A stretch of 64,000 nt of DNA from Escherichia coli (GTDB taxonomy: Bacteria; Pseudomonadota; Gammaproteobacteria; Enterobacterales; Enterobacteriaceae), in NCBI RefSeq assembly GCF_029227855.1, contig NZ_CP074356.1; one strand, written 5' to 3'. Shown here piece by piece: positions 28,901 through 36,536 of the stretch (position 1 is the stretch's first letter; every line of letters begins with the position of its first letter). The notes under the pieces were generated by a model, which searched no databases, was not told the DNA's origin, and saw only the letters and a list, made by a program, of their open reading frames with translations. Made by a program: the position numbers and the translations under genes.

Positions 28901-29710
28901 ATATTGCTGCAAATAATCAGGTGAAATGCCAGACGACAGGAAAACAATATTATTGTTGACATAATCCCATTCAATAGATATTTGTTGAAGATGTATTATT
29001 ACATCAGTAGCATATTCCAGACCGCCTTCCTGAATAATCTGATCCATAACATCCGCACGCTCTTTATATCTCGTGCAGTGCAGTTCAAGTGCCGCGAGTA
29101 CAGCCATTACCGGTGATGGTAATTTTGTCGTTTTCGGGCTGTTAATCAGATCGATCGCCTGAGCGATGAAGTTTTGCCACTCTAAAGTACAGGCGCTGAA
29201 GTCAAATGTAGCTGTTTTGTTATCCCGTTGCGACACGCCACAGGCTAAGCGACGTAACTGGGTTAATTTATCTACAGGTGTAACAGGATCTCCGGGAAAG
29301 CGGCGATGGCTTAAGGTGGTGGGTACGACTTCAAGCGGAAAAACGACAGCAATATCTTTTGCCAGCCACGGTAAAATAACGTCTGTATTTTTGTCAGCCA
29401 CGTAGAATTCTGGTGTAACTGAGGGCTGTTCCTGAATGATGGTAGAAAAGTCAGATAATTCGAGAGATTTCGTTACCGTTCGAGTATGTTTCGATGTAGC
29501 ATTCTCCGCATGTTCCACATACCCCTTTTTCGTTTTCTCCGCAATCAGCTTGAGTTCCGCTTTTTCCGCCGCCGCAGCATCTGCAAAGCTTTTTACCTGA
29601 CTTTGCCCGTTGGTGCCGACTTTGCCCCAACTGATATTCAGTTCGTTTCCCTGCTGCTCCACCGCCCAGAATTTATGTGATTTTTCGTCCTGATAAATAT
29701 AGGTTTTCAT
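25916..29710 (-). CDS. MolR-family protein, paralog B (N-terminal WGR domain, DUF4132-type C-terminal region), 1264 aa
   Basis: Start MKTYIYQDEKSHKFWAVEQQGNELNISWGKVGT (WGR motif); ends ITASELINDIEALFE; SD overlaps the stop of paralog A. Confidence 0.8.
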   Translation of the reverse strand: MKTYIYQDEKSHKFWAVEQQGNELNISWGKVGTNGQSQVKSFADAAAAEKAELKLIAEKTKKGYVEHAENATSKHTRTVTKSLELSDFSTIIQEQPSVTPEFYVADKNTDVILPWLAKDIAVVFPLEVVPTTLSHRRFPGDPVTPVDKLTQLRRLACGVSQRDNKTATFDFSACTLEWQNFIAQAIDLINSPKTTKLPSPVMAVLAALELHCTRYKERADVMDQIIQEGGLEYATDVIIHLQQISIEWDYVNNNIVFLSSGISPDYLQQYSSFELRLRKHLSLAEESLWQKCAQKLIAAVPHIPEWRQPLIALLLPEKPEIAHEIAQRLLGQKKLPSLEWLKIVATDEHILASLEKYHEPYAIFDDYYCGAIWSATVLQEQGVAALPRFAPYVASDYCADVLRHINHPFALTLLIRVAGHTKRCHDRMTKACAAFPHAALAALAELLVQKEENSWRIMLMTMLISQPTLAEQVIPWLSTPAVAVLKSCQQQLTQPSNHASADLLPAIVVSPPWLSKKKKSPIPVLDLAPLGIEPISYLTEEISNQLLAKYIWYSKHITVSHEESTANLLARMGFQRRIAGTYIKAPEAVVEAWLNEDYSTLISEFKVFHSPTGHYWHLGILTTLPLEKAVRAWNALTLSPHTDTEYAMLHFGLKGLPGLVNSLARYPQEALPITNYFAASELAPAVARAFNKLKTLRQDARTWLLKYPEHAITGLLSAALGKAGEAQDNARAALRMLTENGHQPLLQEIARRYNQPEVTNAVNAMLALDPLDNHPTKIPTLPAFYQPSIWTRPVLKANAQSLPDSALQHLGEMLRFHQEEALYPGLLQVKDACTADSLAEFAWDLFTAWQTAGAPSKESWAFTALGVLGNDNTARKLTPLIRAWPGESQHKRATVGLDILAAISSDIALMQLNGIAQKLKFKALQERAKEKIADIAESRELTVAELEDRLAPALGLDDNGSLLLDFGPRQFTVSFDETLKPFVRDVSGSRLKDLPKPNKSDDESQANDAVNRYKLLKKDARTVAAQQVARLESAMCLRRRWSPENFQLFLVEHPLVRHLTRRLIWGVYSAENQLQACFRVAEDNSYSTADDDLFTLQEGDISVGIPHVLEISPTDAVAFGQLFADYELLPPFRQLERNSYALTEAERNASELTRWAGRKCPSGRVMGLANKGWIKGEPQDGGWIGWMIKPLGRWSLIMEIDEGFAVGMSPADLSAEQVLSKLWLWEGKAESYGWGSNSTQEAQFSVLDDITASELINDIEALFE

Positions 29711-29722: not shown

Positions 29723-32700
29723 TTAATCAAAAAGTGATTCGATGTCGTTAATGAGTTCGCTGGCGGTGATGGCATCAAGCGCGGAGAACGTGAGCGAGGG
29801 CTGTGTACTGTAGCGTTCCCCTGGTGAAGTGATTTTTACGCTTTCAACAGGTAGCAGGTCGCTATACCCCGTTTCGCCATAAATTAATGAAAAATGTTCT
29901 GTTTCAAGTTCGAGAGCGCCATAAGGGGTAGATTTGCGCATCGCATAGACGCTGCCGCTTTCTTCCAGACGTTGCCAGCCTCGACGTTCCAGCCCGACAA
30001 TGCGCCCGGCCTGGCAAAGACGTCCTTGCCAGCGTATCAATTCATGGGTATCACGTTCATTATCAGTAAGGTGGTAATAACCACGATCGAGTTGGCGAAA
30101 GGGAGGAAGCTTTTCGTAATCAGCATAAATTTGCCCAAATGCAGTGGCGGATTCAGGAGATATTTCCAGCACATGCGGTATACCGATGTTTCCTGCTGGC
30201 AGCGTGAATAACTCATCCTGCGCATCGCTGTAAGTGCTGTCTTCTGCGACCCGGAAGCAGGCGATCAGCGTGTTTTCCTCAGTATATACCCCCCATAACA
30301 CCCGTCGGGTTAAGTGACGTACCAGCGGATGCTCCACCAGAAACAGGCGGAACTGCTCTGCCGTCCAGCGTCTGCGCTGGCACATATCCTGCTCCAGACG
30401 ATCAATCTGCTGGCTGGCAATGGCGTGCACATCTTTCTTCAATTGTTTGAAGAGGTTAACGGAGTCAGTTGCCAGTGTTTGATCATCGCTCTGATTTGGT
30501 TTGGGTAAATCTTTCAGGACTTTGCCGTTTGCATCGTGCACTACAGGTTTTAAGGTTTCGTCAAAACCAACGGTGAATTGACGTGGGCCGAAATCCAGTA
30601 TCAGCGAGCCACTGTTATCAAGCCCTAAATCTGGAGCCAGGCGGTCTTCCAGTTCAGCCATAGTCAGCCCACGGTTTTCAGCAACTATGTTGATTTTCTC
30701 GCGGGCATGTTCCTGTAATGCTTTGAATTTAATTTTTCGCGCGATGCCATTAAGCAGCATTAGCGCAACATCGCTGCCAATATCAGCTAATACATCCAGC
30801 CCGTAAACCGCGCGTTTATGCTGGGATTCACCCGGCCAGGCACGGATAAGCGGGGTTAATTTACGTGCGGTGTCGTCATTGCCTAAAATCCCAAGCGAAG
30901 TAAATGCCCAGTTTTCTTTTGCGGGTGCGCCAGCTTCTGTCCATGCCGTGTAGAGATCCCAGCCAAAGTCAGCCAGTGATTCGTGGGTGAAGGTCTCTTT
31001 GATGGTCGCCAGCCCAGCGTAGGAGGTAATGTCGCGTGGAAAGCTCAACATTGTGCCCAGGTGGCGCATAGCGTCATCTGGCAGAGGCAGGTTGTTACTT
31101 TTAAGCCGTGGTCTGCGCCATAAGGTGAACTGATAAAAGCCGGGCAGTGGGGCGATTTTAGCGGGATATTCTTCCAGCGGATCGCTATCGAACAATGTTG
31201 CCAGCGCAGCTAAAACATCAGGTTGGTTGTATCTCCGGCCGATTTCTTCAATCGTTTCTCGCTGGTTTAATTTCACTAGCAGGCGGAATGCCTGGCGGGC
31301 ATATTCCCGATTTTGGCACGGTTTGCCCAGCGCCAAAGGCAGTAGCCCGGCGGCGGCATGGCGCGGGTTATTTGCCAGCCAATTAATGGCATCCTTGTAA
31401 GCCATTTTTTTCTGTAACCGCTGCGCCATTGGTAAGGCTAGTTCACTGGCCCCAATAAAGAGGGTGAATATCCACAGTCGTTGATGATCTCGTTGCAAGC
31501 AGGTCATAAACGCAGGAATGGCCGTACTACCAAAAACTGCCAGAATCTCTTTCTCACCTGAATATCGCTCCTCAATGATTATTTGGTTGAGAAATGAAAT
31601 CGCCTGTTGTCCCGGTAAGTAACAAAGCGCAGATAGATTCCAGCTTTTGTTGGCATTGTTGTGATATTTCGCAAACTCAGCTTTTAGTGCTGGAAAATCA
31701 AAGCGCAACAAGGCATCAACAGCGCTTTGCGGTATATATTTTTTTTCATGTAAGTCATCTTCGCAATGCAGCCATTCATTAAAACCTAATTGCCAAAGGA
31801 TTTGTTGTTCTGGTGTAAAAGGAATGAAAGATGTCTCCCAGCTTTCTTTTTCAATTAGTGGCAGGTCGGTAAATAAGGTTTGCTGTGATGACTGATATTG
31901 CGCGATTTCACTGAATCTGGATATGTCAGTATGACTGATTAACTCTGTAATTCCTGGCGTGATGTCAGTGACTGCAGGGATGGGAAGCACCGGTAAATCA
32001 AATACGGGTATTACATTCGTTTTCTTATTTATTACCCACGGTGGAGCGACAAATAGCTCCGGCAACATATCCGCAGTGGCGTATTCACATTCTTCAGCGA
32101 CTAACTGAGTACGACATTCAGATAAGATGCCTGCCGCTTTAGCATTAACCCAGGGAATGACGTCAGTGACTAAATCTGGCGTGGCGGTAATCAGTTTGAC
32201 AAGCGCTTTACGCCACTGTGCATCTTCATGTATTGCCAGTAAAGTTGCATAAGCGGCAAGAGCCGCAGCGGGATGTTTTTGACAGGCTTTGCTTAAGTAT
32301 TCCAGGTGCTTTTTCTTGCCAATTACACCGAGGATCAGAATTTGAATCGCATCCGGGTGATTCGTTTTCCATAGCCATTTGACAAGATCTTCAGTCTCGC
32401 TGATGCGCTCGAAGAGATAAGTGGGATTGTCAGAATGCTCTTCCGTAAACTCAAGAAGTATCCGGCTTACACCGCGCACCCCATTATTTGCCAGCAACAT
32501 TGCCAGATAAGCGCGAAAATCATGATACAACGGTGGGAAGTCGTATTTTTCTGCTGTAGTCAGAGCGGCGTCATCGGTTACCACCAGTCTTAACCAGGTC
32601 ATCGCCGGAACGTTTTGATCTGCATAACGTAGCGCCATAGCATTGGCAATATCCGGGCGTTCAGGGAGCAGTAACGCCGCAAAAGGTTGCCGTGCTGGGG

Positions 32701-33520
32701 ATAGCGAGGGAATAGCAGCGAGAACTTTATCTACACAGCGTTGCCACTCATCTTCTGAAGCGAGTGAAAGATGATGACATAGACGTTGATGCCAGTTCGG
32801 TAGTGATTCTGCTTTGAGATCAGGGGGAATAATGGTGGTGACGTCGGCTTTTACTGGTTTATATTTGAGTTGAAGAGCGAGAAGGGCGATTTCAACGGTA
32901 GTTTCCAGACCACAGCGAATGACTAAGTCATCGACCAGTTCATCTGTAGAGTAAGAGTTCCATAAATTCCAGAGCAATGCCGCATCAGATTGTATACTTC
33001 CTGTTTGTTGATTATTCAGAATTCGCCTTTGTAACTCGGCAAACGCCAGCTGCCAGTTTTCAGGATAAGAGCGGTAATTATTGTCGGGGTCATATGCCCT
33101 GGTGTTATTCGCGATGCGCTTCCATATTTGGCCATCTTTGTACAGATAATTGATCTCTCTGGGGCGAGAGCGATGAGGAAAAGCAAATCGATTAATATCG
33201 CCAGTTACCGGAATGACTGCATCATCAGCCACCCATGGGCGTTTGTTTTTACTCTCAGGGGAGGTTTCAACTTCAGGAGTGGCTTTGGTGATGGGGGGGA
33301 TATGCACGTTTGCTAAAGCATTTTCCACATAGCCTTTTTTCGTTTTCTCTGCGATCAGCTTAAGCTCCGCTTTTGCCGCTGCCGCAGCATCCGCAAAACT
33401 TTTTACCTGGTTTTGCCCTTTGGTGCCAACTTTTCCCCAACAGATATGCAACTCGTTTCCCTGTTGCTCCACCGCCCAGAATTTATGTGATTTTTCGTCC
33501 TGAAAGATAAAGTGCCTCAT
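29723..33520 (-). CDS. molR: MolR-family protein, paralog A (N-terminal WGR domain, DUF4132-type C-terminal region), 1265 aa
   Basis: Start MRHFIFQDEKSHKFWAVEQQGNELHICWGKVGT; ends ITASELINDIESLFD; first gene after the IS200. Confidence 0.8.
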   Translation of the reverse strand: MRHFIFQDEKSHKFWAVEQQGNELHICWGKVGTKGQNQVKSFADAAAAAKAELKLIAEKTKKGYVENALANVHIPPITKATPEVETSPESKNKRPWVADDAVIPVTGDINRFAFPHRSRPREINYLYKDGQIWKRIANNTRAYDPDNNYRSYPENWQLAFAELQRRILNNQQTGSIQSDAALLWNLWNSYSTDELVDDLVIRCGLETTVEIALLALQLKYKPVKADVTTIIPPDLKAESLPNWHQRLCHHLSLASEDEWQRCVDKVLAAIPSLSPARQPFAALLLPERPDIANAMALRYADQNVPAMTWLRLVVTDDAALTTAEKYDFPPLYHDFRAYLAMLLANNGVRGVSRILLEFTEEHSDNPTYLFERISETEDLVKWLWKTNHPDAIQILILGVIGKKKHLEYLSKACQKHPAAALAAYATLLAIHEDAQWRKALVKLITATPDLVTDVIPWVNAKAAGILSECRTQLVAEECEYATADMLPELFVAPPWVINKKTNVIPVFDLPVLPIPAVTDITPGITELISHTDISRFSEIAQYQSSQQTLFTDLPLIEKESWETSFIPFTPEQQILWQLGFNEWLHCEDDLHEKKYIPQSAVDALLRFDFPALKAEFAKYHNNANKSWNLSALCYLPGQQAISFLNQIIIEERYSGEKEILAVFGSTAIPAFMTCLQRDHQRLWIFTLFIGASELALPMAQRLQKKMAYKDAINWLANNPRHAAAGLLPLALGKPCQNREYARQAFRLLVKLNQRETIEEIGRRYNQPDVLAALATLFDSDPLEEYPAKIAPLPGFYQFTLWRRPRLKSNNLPLPDDAMRHLGTMLSFPRDITSYAGLATIKETFTHESLADFGWDLYTAWTEAGAPAKENWAFTSLGILGNDDTARKLTPLIRAWPGESQHKRAVYGLDVLADIGSDVALMLLNGIARKIKFKALQEHAREKINIVAENRGLTMAELEDRLAPDLGLDNSGSLILDFGPRQFTVGFDETLKPVVHDANGKVLKDLPKPNQSDDQTLATDSVNLFKQLKKDVHAIASQQIDRLEQDMCQRRRWTAEQFRLFLVEHPLVRHLTRRVLWGVYTEENTLIACFRVAEDSTYSDAQDELFTLPAGNIGIPHVLEISPESATAFGQIYADYEKLPPFRQLDRGYYHLTDNERDTHELIRWQGRLCQAGRIVGLERRGWQRLEESGSVYAMRKSTPYGALELETEHFSLIYGETGYSDLLPVESVKITSPGERYSTQPSLTFSALDAITASELINDIESLFD

Positions 33521-33617
33521 TCTGCATCCCTGTAATTTTATCCAGTTGAATGCTGATGCTACCAGTATTTATGCGGGTTAGAGAGAGACAAAATCGCAAG
33601 AAAACAACTTTAGGAAT

Positions 33618-34326
33618 TTATAAATAAATATCCTCCGGCATAGCCGGAGGTTTTTCAAATGCGCCTATAAGGCTCTCTTACCAGCCGCGCCCTAACAGGC
33701 GCACACGATCTGACATTTGCATCCAACTTCGTTACTTACGGCCCGTAAACGGGCTGCCCGGATAGGGAATCGATAACTGCTCTCCCATTTTATCCTCTTC
33801 AAGCTGGTGCTTTATGTAATCCTGTATCTTCGCCGTGTTCTTACCCACCGTATCGACGTAATACCCTCTGCACCAGAACTCCCTGTTCCTGTATTTGAAT
33901 TTCAAATCACCAAACTGCTCGTAAAGCATCAGACTGCTTTTCCCTTTCAGATATCCCATAAAGCCTGATACGCTCATTTTGGGCGGGATCTCCACAAGCA
34001 TATGGATATGATCTGCACAGCATTCAGCTTCCAGAATCCGTACACTTTTCCACTCACACAGCTTTCTCAAAATACAGCCTATTGCTCTACGCTTCTCTCT
34101 GTAGAACACCTGTCTTCGGTATTTTGGCGCAAATACTATGTGATATTTACAGTTCCATCGGGTGTGCGCTAAGCTCTTTTCGTTCCCCATTGGGACCCCC
34201 TTTTGATTTCTTGTTTGACACTTGCAGTTGCCAGACCGCAAGGTGTTTTAACAAATCAAAAGGGGTTTTAATAACTGGCTCAAAGCTGAAAGCTTTCCGG
34301 AACCCCCAGCCTAGCTGGGGGTTTTC
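33618..34326 (-). mobile_element. IS200 insertion sequence (IS200/IS605 family); boundaries approximate
   Basis: Contains a Y1 HUH transposase gene; perfect hairpin cccccagc-cta-gctggggg at 34303-34321; 13-bp inverted repeat ccccttttgattt/aaatcaaaagggg (34197-34265) over the tnpA start; IS200 has no terminal inverted repeats, so ends were set by the expected ~0.7 kb size. Confidence 0.6.
33732..34190 (-). CDS. tnpA: IS200 transposase TnpA (Y1 HUH transposase, 152 aa)
   Basis: MGNEKSLAHTRWNCKYHIVFAPKYRR...HIHMLVEIPP (HUH motif); ORF track extends upstream to 34241 via an alternative start; start coordinate uncertain by about 1 nt. Confidence 0.85.
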   Translation of the reverse strand: MGNEKSLAHTRWNCKYHIVFAPKYRRQVFYREKRRAIGCILRKLCEWKSVRILEAECCADHIHMLVEIPPKMSVSGFMGYLKGKSSLMLYEQFGDLKFKYRNREFWCRGYYVDTVGKNTAKIQDYIKHQLEEDKMGEQLSIPYPGSPFTGRK

Positions 34327-34327
34327 T

Positions 34328-34360
34328 GTGCACAAGAAAAGGCGCTGTCGATACAGCGCC
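34328..34360 (-). terminator. metG intrinsic terminator (ggcgctgt-cgat-acagcgcc then TTTTCTT on the - strand)
   Basis: Hairpin 11 nt after the metG stop; the IS200 sits immediately beyond it. Confidence 0.6.
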
Positions 34361-34371
34361 TTGAAAGGAGA

Positions 34372-36405
34372 TTATTTCACCTGATGACCCGGTTTAGCAC
34401 CGGCATCCGGGCTTAGCAGGAAAATATCTTTCCCGCCAGGACCGGCAGCCATCACCATGCCTTCGGAGATACCGAAGCGCATTTTACGTGGTGCCAGGTT
34501 AGCCACCATAATGGTGTGACGACCAATCAGTGCCTGCGGATCCGGGTAAGCAGAACGAATGCCGGAGAAGACATTGCGTTTTTCACCGCCGAGATCCAGC
34601 GTCAGGCGCAGCAGTTTGTCGGAACCTTCAACAAACTCTGCGTTTTCAATCAACGCCACGCGCAGGTCAACTTTGGCGAAGTCGTCAAAGGTGATGGTTT
34701 CCTGAATCGGATCATCTGCCAGTGGGCCAGTTACTGGCGCGGCAGTGGCTTTCACTTCTTCTTTAGAGGCTTCCACCAGTGCTTCAACCTGCTTCATGTC
34801 GATGCGGTTATACAGCGCTTTGAACGGATTCACTTTATGGCCCAACAGCGGTTGCTGGATACCATCCCAGGTCAGTTCCGTATTAAGGAATGCTTCTGCA
34901 CGCTCGGTCAGTTTCGGCAGTACCGGCTTCAGGTAAGTCATCAGCACGCGGAACAGGTTTATGCCCATCGAGCAAATTGCCTGCAGGTCGGCATCGCGGC
35001 CTTCCTGTTTTGCGACTACCCACGGAGCCTGTTCATCGACATAACGGTTAGCAAGATCAGCCAGCGCCATGATTTCGCGGATCGCTTTACCAAATTCGCG
35101 GCTTTCCCACGCTTCACCAATCACTTCAGCGGCATCAGTGAAGGTTTTGTACAGTTGCGGGTCAGCCAGTTCGCTTGCCAGCACACCGTCAAAACGCTTG
35201 TTGATAAAGCCCGCGTTACGGGAGGCCAGGTTAACCACTTTATTCACGATATCGGCATTCACACGCTGAACGAAATCTTCCAGGTTGAGATCGATATCAT
35301 CAATGCGCGAAGAGAGTTTCGCAGTGTAGTAGTAACGCAGGCTGTCGGCGTCAAAATGATTCAGCCAGGTGCTGGCCTTAATAAAGGTACCGCGAGACTT
35401 AGACATCTTCGCGCCGTTCACCGTCACATAGCCATGAACAAACAGGTTAGTCGGCTTGCGGAAGTTGCTGCCTTCCAGCATTGCTGGCCAGAACAGGCTG
35501 TGGAAGTAAACAATATCTTTGCCGATGAAGTGATACAGCTCGGCGGTGGAATCTTTCTTCCAGTATTCATCGAAGCTGGTGGTGTCGCCGCGTTTGTCGC
35601 ACAGATTCTTGAAGGAACCCATGTAGCCAATCGGCGCATCCAGCCAGACGTAGAAATATTTGCCCGGTGCGTTCGGAATTTCAAAACCGAAGTATGGCGC
35701 ATCGCGGGAGATATCCCACTGTTGCAGGCCAGATTCAAACCACTCCTGCATTTTGTTTGCCACTTGCTCCTGCAACGCGCCGCTGCGGGTCCATGCCTGC
35801 AACATTTCGCTGAAAGAGGGCAGATCAAAGAAGAAGTGTTCAGAATCACGCATTACCGGCGTAGCACCAGAAACCACCGATTTAGGCTCGATCAGCTCAG
35901 TCGGGCTGTAGGTCGCGCCACAAACTTCACAGTTATCGCCGTATTGATCCGGGGATTTACATTTCGGGCAGGTGCCTTTTACAAAACGGTCCGGCAGGAA
36001 CATGCCTTTTTCCGGATCGTACAGCTGAGAGATAGTGCGGTTTTTAATAAAACCGTTCTCTTTCAGGCGAGAATAAATAAGTTCTGACAACTGGCGGTTC
36101 TCTTCGCTGTGCGTCGAGTGATAGTTGTCATAGCTGATGTTAAAGCCTGCGAAATCAGTCTGATGCTCCTGACTCATTTCGCCAATCATCTGCTCCGGGG
36201 TGATACCAAGCTGCTGAGCTTTCAGCATGATCGGTGTGCCGTGGGCATCGTCGGCGCAAATGAAGTTGACCTCGTGGCCGCGCATTCGCTGGTAACGGAC
36301 CCAGACATCAGCCTGGATGTGCTCCAGCATATGGCCGAGGTGGATTGAGCCGTTAGCGTACGGCAGTGCGCACGTCACCAGAATTTTCTTCGCGACTTGA
36401 GTCAT
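34372..36405 (-). CDS. metG: Methionyl-tRNA synthetase
   Basis: ORF 34372-36414; start [29 protein letters not shown] (HIGH motif) gives 677 aa; KMSKS present. Confidence 0.95.
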
Positions 36406-36536
36406 AGTAGGCATTACTTCTTAATAGTGAAAAGGGGTTAGATAGTACCAAATGGGAAAATGTTAAGTAAGTACTTCTCTATATTCTTCAGGTAAACTAT
36501 CAGCTGATGGTTTATCTATACAAAAAAGGAGTCGGG

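Follow-up and report, generated by a model that had tools for sequence, protein, structure and literature searches.

An intact IS200C insertion sequence directly behind the metG terminator of Escherichia coli

IS200 of Salmonella is 707-709 bp long (Lam and Roth 1983; Ellis et al. 2015, PMC4513863). Its left end carries a hairpin that serves as a bidirectional terminator (PMC4513863, PMC5435999) and halts about 85% of impinging transcripts (PMC5435999). A stem-loop that sequesters the Shine-Dalgarno (SD) sequence of the transposase gene and a region of the antisense RNA art200 (formerly STnc490) have also been published for IS200 (PMC4513863). The E. coli isoform is IS200C (IS200/IS605 family, IS200 group), and Yersinia pestis carries IS1541. 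IS608 and ISDra2 resemble IS200C in having a Y1 HUH transposase, subterminal hairpins and no inverted repeats. All three insert 3′ of a fixed short sequence by the left end, which is TTAC for IS608, TTGAT for ISDra2 and, in the present analysis, TTNTT for IS200C. The association of the IS200 group with terminators is not new, since a proposal, a preprint and a published insertion site precede our analysis. Terminator-like stem-loops were reportedly proposed as hot spots of IS1541 by Odaert et al. in 1998. A 2025-26 preprint (10.1101/2025.07.22.666184) finds terminator-like sequences overrepresented immediately upstream of ISs, with IS200/IS605 showing the strongest effect, and Yersinia has an IS1541 copy that separates the pheL attenuator from pheA (PMC3082878).

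We analyzed a 64,000-nucleotide stretch of E. coli DNA, referred to here as the window. Profile, Rfam and empty-site comparisons identify positions 33623-34333 on the minus strand as a full-length IS200C of 711 bp with one open reading frame (ORF). The element begins with GTGCACAGAA, ends with ATATTTATT, and corresponds to 711 bp that are absent from CX12, DH5alpha and MG1655. It is 100% identical to copies annotated as IS200C in RefSeq, and its nucleotide identity to copies bearing the PGAP name of the isoform, those of CFT073 included, is 98-100%. Length class, the single 152-aa tnpA and the end structures are those of IS200C as well, so the element itself is no different and only its locus is rare. 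The isoform name rests on the RefSeq annotation, where PGAP calls the product “IS200/IS605-like element IS200C family transposase.” The insertion is already known, being annotated in RefSeq in strain JNEC-KY178. No second IS200 copy was found within the window.

Comparison with unoccupied loci defined the ends of the element. Empty sites read GCGCCTTTTCTT followed directly by TATAAATTCC, and the filled site has 711 extra bp at that point. On the metG sense strand, CX12, DH5alpha and K-12 MG1655 run from AAGGCGCTGCATCGACAGCGCCTTTTCTT straight into TATAAATTCCTAAAG, in an uninterrupted 140-bp spacer. Alignment alone leaves a 2-nt ambiguity at the junction, TT being common to the target and the end of the insert. 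This ambiguity is resolved because five further IS200C copies, at other loci, have constant ends: similarity begins at GTGCACAGAA and stops at ATATTTATT every time, and these consensus ends are common to all six E. coli copies. Filled and empty sites differ by exactly 711 bp, and the longest repeat is the 2-nt TT, all targets ending in TT. Thus, no target duplication longer than 2 nt was found in the alignments of filled versus empty sites. A 2-bp TT duplication would be compatible with the data, as every target ends in TT; the family mechanism predicts none. With both cleavage points placed after TT, the element measures 711 bp, against 707-709 bp for IS200 of Salmonella, whose hairpin is numbered nt 12-34 in print (PMC4513863), which puts its left end 1 nt farther from the hairpin than ours.

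The right-end tail ATATTTATT (33623-33631, minus strand) ends in TTATT, the presumed right cleavage site; it is constant in the six E. coli copies, and divergence starts directly after it. The left-end leader GTGCACAGAA (34324-34333, minus strand) extends from the cleavage point to the hairpin. Beside the foot of the hairpin it is kept as (G/C)AA in all variants from the many species that we compared, and by analogy with the IS608 model its A-rich 3′ part is a candidate guide sequence. The first 30 nt and the reverse complement of the last 30 agree at 8 of 30 positions in register; the best match at any shift of up to 6 nt is 15/30, at a 3-nt offset, and falls in the hairpin-containing ends. 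A preliminary description of this DNA had reported a complete IS200-type Y1 (HUH) element with stem-loops and without terminal inverted repeats, and these points hold: tnpA is intact, both subterminal hairpins are present, the Rfam match is full, and the ends show no inverted repeat. It had placed the boundaries at 33618-34326 and flagged them as approximate. The flag was warranted, as each end was 5-7 bp off; alignment to the empty sites, K-12 among them, and the consensus ends of the six copies gave the exact positions, 33623-34333. The possibility of a mere transposase fragment, raised at the time as the result that would count against the description, did not materialize, with the ORF whole and both ends matching the consensus.

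The tnpA gene (33732-34190, minus strand) encodes an intact Y1 HUH transposase of 152 aa, which is identical to WP_000526113.1, a protein present at several other loci. In JNEC-KY178 it is annotated under that accession, already as an IS200C family transposase (RefSeq). The protein matches Pfam Y1_Tnp (PF01797) with E=1.7e-37 over profile positions 2-121 of 121. It aligns with the solved IS200-family transposases 2EC2 (1.2e-22), 2A6M, the TnpA of IS608 (1.1e-18), and 2F4F. The HUH motif is H61-I-H63, and tyrosines Y110/Y111 align to the RSYF/RGYY region of 2EC2. Thus the kinship with IS608 (E about 1e-18 to 2A6M) extends to the transposase; tnpA is, however, the single ORF in the 711 bp, and there is no tnpB, in which IS200C differs from IS608 and ISDra2. 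Transposition through single-stranded intermediates is a trait of the family and would be expected of this TnpA. Judged by its parts, the copy is intact and probably transposition competent.

The noncoding structures are those published for Salmonella IS200. The left-end subterminal hairpin, AACCCCCAGC-TAG-GCTGGGGGTT (34301-34323, minus strand), has a 10-bp stem, covers positions 1-23 of Rfam STnc490 and is the presumed TnpA binding structure; as the left-end terminator at about nt 11-33 it is shared with Salmonella IS200. Also shared are the SD-sequestering stem-loop, the art200/STnc490 region and the end-to-end Rfam match. The latter (STnc490, RF01405) spans 34200-34323 on the minus strand and scores 146.4 bits against a gathering score of 56, over positions 1-124 of 124. 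Since the match is to the tnpA-sense strand and the published art200 runs antisense, it identifies the region but not the strand of the RNA. In the 5′ untranslated region of tnpA, a stem-loop at 34197-34265 (minus strand; RNA fold, −42.9 kcal/mol; z=−4.1) has the SD sequence AAAAGGGG paired; the published art200 spans this stretch as well, on the opposite strand. The right-end subterminal hairpin, CCTCCGGC-TAT-GCCGGAGG (33632-33650, minus strand), has an 8-bp stem by DNA folding, and the terminator scan scores it as terminator-like on both strands. Two other Rfam hits near the element, both to families of eukaryotic/archaeal type, were dismissed as chance: MIR8001 (23 bits; gathering score, 90) and snoRNA sR43 (15.7 bits; gathering score, 45).

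Along the minus strand the order is metG, its terminator, the 711-bp block, a 102-bp spacer and a gene for a 1265-aa protein with WGR and DUF4132 domains. The upstream neighbor, metG (34372-36414, minus strand; annotation and Pfam tRNA-synt_1g, E=3.8e-166), is co-oriented with tnpA; the ATG of the listed ORF is 3 codons upstream of the RefSeq start. The metG intrinsic terminator, AAGGCGCTG-TATC-GACAGCGCCTT plus TTCTT (34334-34362, minus strand), is native host DNA that is also found in the empty sites, and it is the target of the insertion. The terminator scan places it at 34339-34362 on the minus strand, directly upstream of IS200C, which starts right after the TTTTCTT of the T-tract. Downstream, the retained spacer (33521-33622, minus strand) shows one difference from the K-12 empty site and separates the end of IS200C from the ATG of the molR-like gene at 33520 (gene at 29723-33520, minus strand; Pfam WGR and DUF4132; annotation) by 102 bp. 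The element had initially been placed directly beyond the metG terminator and about 100 bp before the molR-like start; the junction after the T-tract and the 102 bp bear this out. The molR-like gene is whole in the window, and the same locus in MG1655 (4475-8270 of L132) consists of yehF and the pseudogene yehH. A record labeled DH5alpha has an intact molR-like gene of 3795 nt annotated, which is odd for a K-12 derivative.

We then considered how common the insertion is. With flanks plus IS as the query, 5 of 5426 complete E. coli genomes have a filled site between metG and the molR-like gene. These are JNEC-KY178 (100% identical), FDAARGOS_1279, elppa5, 2022H047 and 2022H048. Over 13.1 kb the window is 99.985% identical to JNEC-KY178. 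With IS200C alone as the query, 2063 of the 5426 genomes have a copy covering at least 80% of it and 3094 have some match, with as many as 35 places in a single genome. MG1655 lacks IS200 across the 14 kb inspected around metG, and its 140-bp metG-yehF spacer is uninterrupted; the DH5alpha chromosome gave a flank match only, in a single place, with the query of flanks plus IS. The statement in the preliminary description that K-12 lacks IS200 is thus confirmed for this locus. The insertion is far from universal in E. coli; its universality had been named as an outcome that would count against the description. The label “strain-specific” fits the site (5/5426), but not IS200 itself, which is common (2063/5426).

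The carriers allowed us to ask whether they share one insertion event. Compared with the window, 2022H047 differs by 5.1% in metG, by 9.9% in the molR-like gene, which is frameshifted in this strain, and at 5 of 38 nt in the flank adjacent to the left end. Its IS nevertheless shows 0 differences in 711 bp and has the same junctions. Homologous import from a window-like donor is an unlikely source of this copy, because the flank already departs from the window 17 nt outside the left end of the IS. We read it as an independent insertion, so that the same nucleotide was hit at least twice. FDAARGOS_1279 and elppa5 show another pattern: relative to the window they differ by 3.4% in metG, by 1/3121 in the molR-like gene and by 0/38 in the left-end flank, with 5-7 differences in the IS over 711 bp. 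These copies could represent a third insertion, gene conversion between IS copies, or a recombination tract ending inside the IS. The divergence of metG (3.4%) set against that of the molR-like gene (1/3121) places a recombination breakpoint at or inside the IS in these two genomes. FDAARGOS_1279 also has an extra T at the right junction (ATATTTATT-T-TATAAA; locus position 3222 of L009, approximately window 33621-33622), which could be a 712-bp variant or slippage in a T/A run.

The position directly behind a terminator is not peculiar to metG. In 6/6 E. coli IS200C copies the left end directly adjoins a GC-rich hairpin and its T-run, which together form the terminator of a co-oriented gene; these upstream genes are metG, tcyJ, fdnI, htpX, rph and a plasmid gene. 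For a broader sample, we searched a set with a single genome for each species for exact matches to the 23-nt left-end hairpin, which returned 120 loci with 118 unique left flanks. One Y. pestis genome (IS1541) supplied about half of them, and the others came from Vibrio, Brenneria, Dickeya, Edwardsiella and several metagenome-assembled genomes (MAGs). A flank was counted as carrying a hairpin if it had a perfect stem of 5 bp or more, 3 or more of them GC pairs, closed by a loop of 3-8 nt, and if a T-rich tail reached the IS boundary. This strict test was passed by 91/118 flanks (77%), compared with 0.25% of positions shifted 100-400 nt away and 6.9% of the other TTNTT sites in these loci; the binomial P value for the enrichment of terminators at IS junctions is about 1e-80. 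Many of the 27 flanks that failed the perfect-stem test have hairpins with mismatches or longer loops by eye.

The flanks also specify the target at the nucleotide level. Among the 118, the last five bases are T in 113, T in 98, N, T in 116 and T in 105. The tail between stem and IS measures 4-6 nt in 81 of the 91 flanks that passed the strict test, with TT nearly invariant at −2/−1. There is one orientation, TTNTT directly 5′ of the left end, and the 6/6 E. coli copies follow it too. As deduced from these flanks, the target of the IS200 group is TTNTT next to a hairpin, which sets the group apart from the IS608 model, where an adjacent hairpin is not required. The hairpin would either contribute to target capture or mark places where an insertion is survivable, because it accompanies 6.9% of TTNTT sites in general and 77% of junctions. 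The precision of the spacing and the repeated hit favor targeting. IS200C itself ends on the right in TTATT behind a hairpin, and in two cases an element has inserted immediately after the right end of another copy. We considered that a terminator might be an exact mimic of this right end and rejected the idea, since stem and cleavage point are 9 nt apart at the right end and 4-7 nt apart at targets; the resemblance is loose. IS1541 is 85-87.5% identical to IS200C over its full length and has the identical 23-nt left-end hairpin, and its copies in the 118-flank set sit behind hairpin-plus-T-run sites. It differs in its leader, GTGCCCAGAA, and in a much higher copy number.

Taken together, we are confident that this is an intact IS200C that arrived by peel-and-paste insertion behind the metG terminator, and that its position reflects target choice rather than function, because terminators are the habitual landing site of the group. 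IS200C would have entered the spacer between metG and the molR-like gene by the single-strand “peel and paste” route and been joined, without target duplication, directly 3′ of TTCTT (a TTNTT), which belongs to the T-tract of the metG terminator. Both tnpA and the left end share the orientation of metG. Terminators of this build, a GC-rich hairpin and a T-run, are where the IS200 group habitually lands. TnpA presumably reads the T-run through the A-rich bases beside the left-end hairpin, as in IS608, and the neighboring hairpin probably contributes to targeting.

What the insertion does to its neighbors can be gauged from the anatomy of the site. The metG terminator keeps its stem and the first 7 nt of its T-tract, beyond which TTTATAAA is replaced by GTGCACAG. 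Transcripts that read through from metG would encounter the left-end terminator after another 17 nt, and the right-end hairpin after that. A crude scan, insensitive to weak promoters, found no promoter-like (sigma-70-like) site on either strand of 33400-34500. The insertion is probably close to neutral, because the stem and proximal T-tract of the metG terminator are intact, the two IS hairpins insulate, and the 102-bp spacer is kept. A large effect on the molR-like gene is unlikely, and at most we would expect reduced residual read-through from metG. The preliminary description had suggested that the element might uncouple or alter expression of the paralogs; the anatomy points away from altered expression.

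Other explanations of the locus have to be set against target choice. One is that the element changes transcription of the molR-like paralog, either because it stops read-through from metG or because it brings in or moves promoter elements, and is retained for that reason. IS200C does end 102 bp short of the molR-like start, it places two terminator-like hairpins between the genes, the left-end one being of the kind that halts about 85% of impinging transcripts (PMC5435999), and the molR-like gene is intact in the strain of the window. However, metG has kept its own terminator stem and proximal T-tract, the scan found no outward promoter-like site, and target preference fully explains the position. 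With only 5 carriers, one of which (2022H047) has a frameshifted molR-like gene, we consider retention for function improbable. A second possibility is that insertion is near random and that the terminator pattern reflects the survival of harmless insertions, i.e., selection and not targeting. Insertions behind terminators are expected to be harmless, selection against insertions elsewhere could partly yield the association, and IS200 was first found as a rare insertion in hisD, so sites other than terminators are possible. The preprint cited above (10.1101/2025.07.22.666184) interprets the terminators upstream as a niche in which expression of the transposase is kept low. Selection does not readily account for the nucleotide-level precision of the tail length and of TT at −2/−1, for the same nucleotide being hit in two diverged backgrounds, or for the excess of hairpins at junctions over TTNTT sites elsewhere, and other harmless intergenic positions are not used. 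We therefore hold selection without targeting to be quite improbable.

The insertion might instead be ancestral and have been lost by precise excision from nearly all E. coli. IS200/IS605 elements excise precisely, and the scarless empty site is the same as one that was never occupied. Yet this history needs loss in 5421 of 5426 genomes by an element that is notoriously inactive, and the IS is 100% identical across carriers whose flanks differ by 5-10%. Since the IS is identical and the flanks are not, it must be much younger than the split of the carrier lineages, and we give the ancestral history very little credence. Finally, fragments of IS200 are common in E. coli, as seen in the 3094 genomes with some match against 2063 with a copy of at least 80%, and the element could in principle be a decayed relic or fragment. 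This reading is refuted, and its chance next to nil, given the full Pfam and Rfam matches, the full length with consensus ends, the intact ORF equal to WP_000526113.1 of several other loci, and the identical 711-bp copy in another genome.

The strand on which the target lies provides a further lead. GC skew of the window plus strand is +0.036 overall and positive in all eight 8-kb bins (+0.011 to +0.083). Because the plus strand skew is positive throughout, metG, the IS and the paralog genes, all on the minus strand, are transcribed against replication. The sense strand of IS200C must be its active strand, because it carries both TTNTT cleavage contexts. Judged by the skew, the active strand would therefore lie on the leading-strand template. 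IS608 and ISDra2 prefer the lagging-strand template, the opposite of what we see here, and as a single case this is a lead only. As a speculation that is rather unlikely to be right in full, TnpA of the IS200 group may recognize terminators as structures, a GC hairpin whose stem is followed at 4-6 nt by TTNTT, loosely like the right end of the element. Capture might then also be possible away from the lagging-strand template, for instance on the non-template strand that is displaced when a transcription complex terminates. If true, structural recognition and capture from a transcription complex would explain both the co-orientation with the upstream gene and the site on the leading-strand template. 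A rule that joins structure and a pentanucleotide at nucleotide resolution, and that holds from Yersinia to MAGs of Bacillota and Desulfovibrionaceae, may then lack an earlier mechanistic statement.

The insertion is a strain marker, probably without a phenotype, that strains like JNEC-KY178 share with four further complete genomes. Its filled and empty alleles show, to the single nucleotide, IS200 landing behind a terminator T-tract. The terminator pattern offers a practical rule for annotating the ends of IS200-group elements, which lack inverted repeats. Landing behind terminators also helps to explain how a nearly dormant element reaches a high copy number without damaging genes.

Several minor observations came from the same comparisons. 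The exact 23-nt hairpin was found in MAGs of widely separated assignment (Bacillota, Peptococcaceae, Saccharibacteria, Elusimicrobiaceae, Oxalobacter and Mailhella/Desulfovibrio; loci L012-L072), where the distance to a contig end is mostly about 100 nt or less. These hits reflect either a very wide recent horizontal spread or binning and assembly artifacts at repeats. The window has two adjacent WGR/DUF4132 paralogs whose 5′ ends share a 186-nt stretch at 88.7% identity (window approximately 29508-29693 and 33318-33503; L001 2109-2294 and 5919-6104), a possible substrate for recombination. In Y. pestis NCTC5923, IS1541 occurs in tandem (L078, 2661-3393; L080, 12605-13337; also L077 and L124), with left-end hairpins 710 bp apart and the right end (…CCGGAGGATATTTATT) joined directly to the next left end. 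Such a junction is that of an excised circle, and it is consistent with a right end having served as the target.
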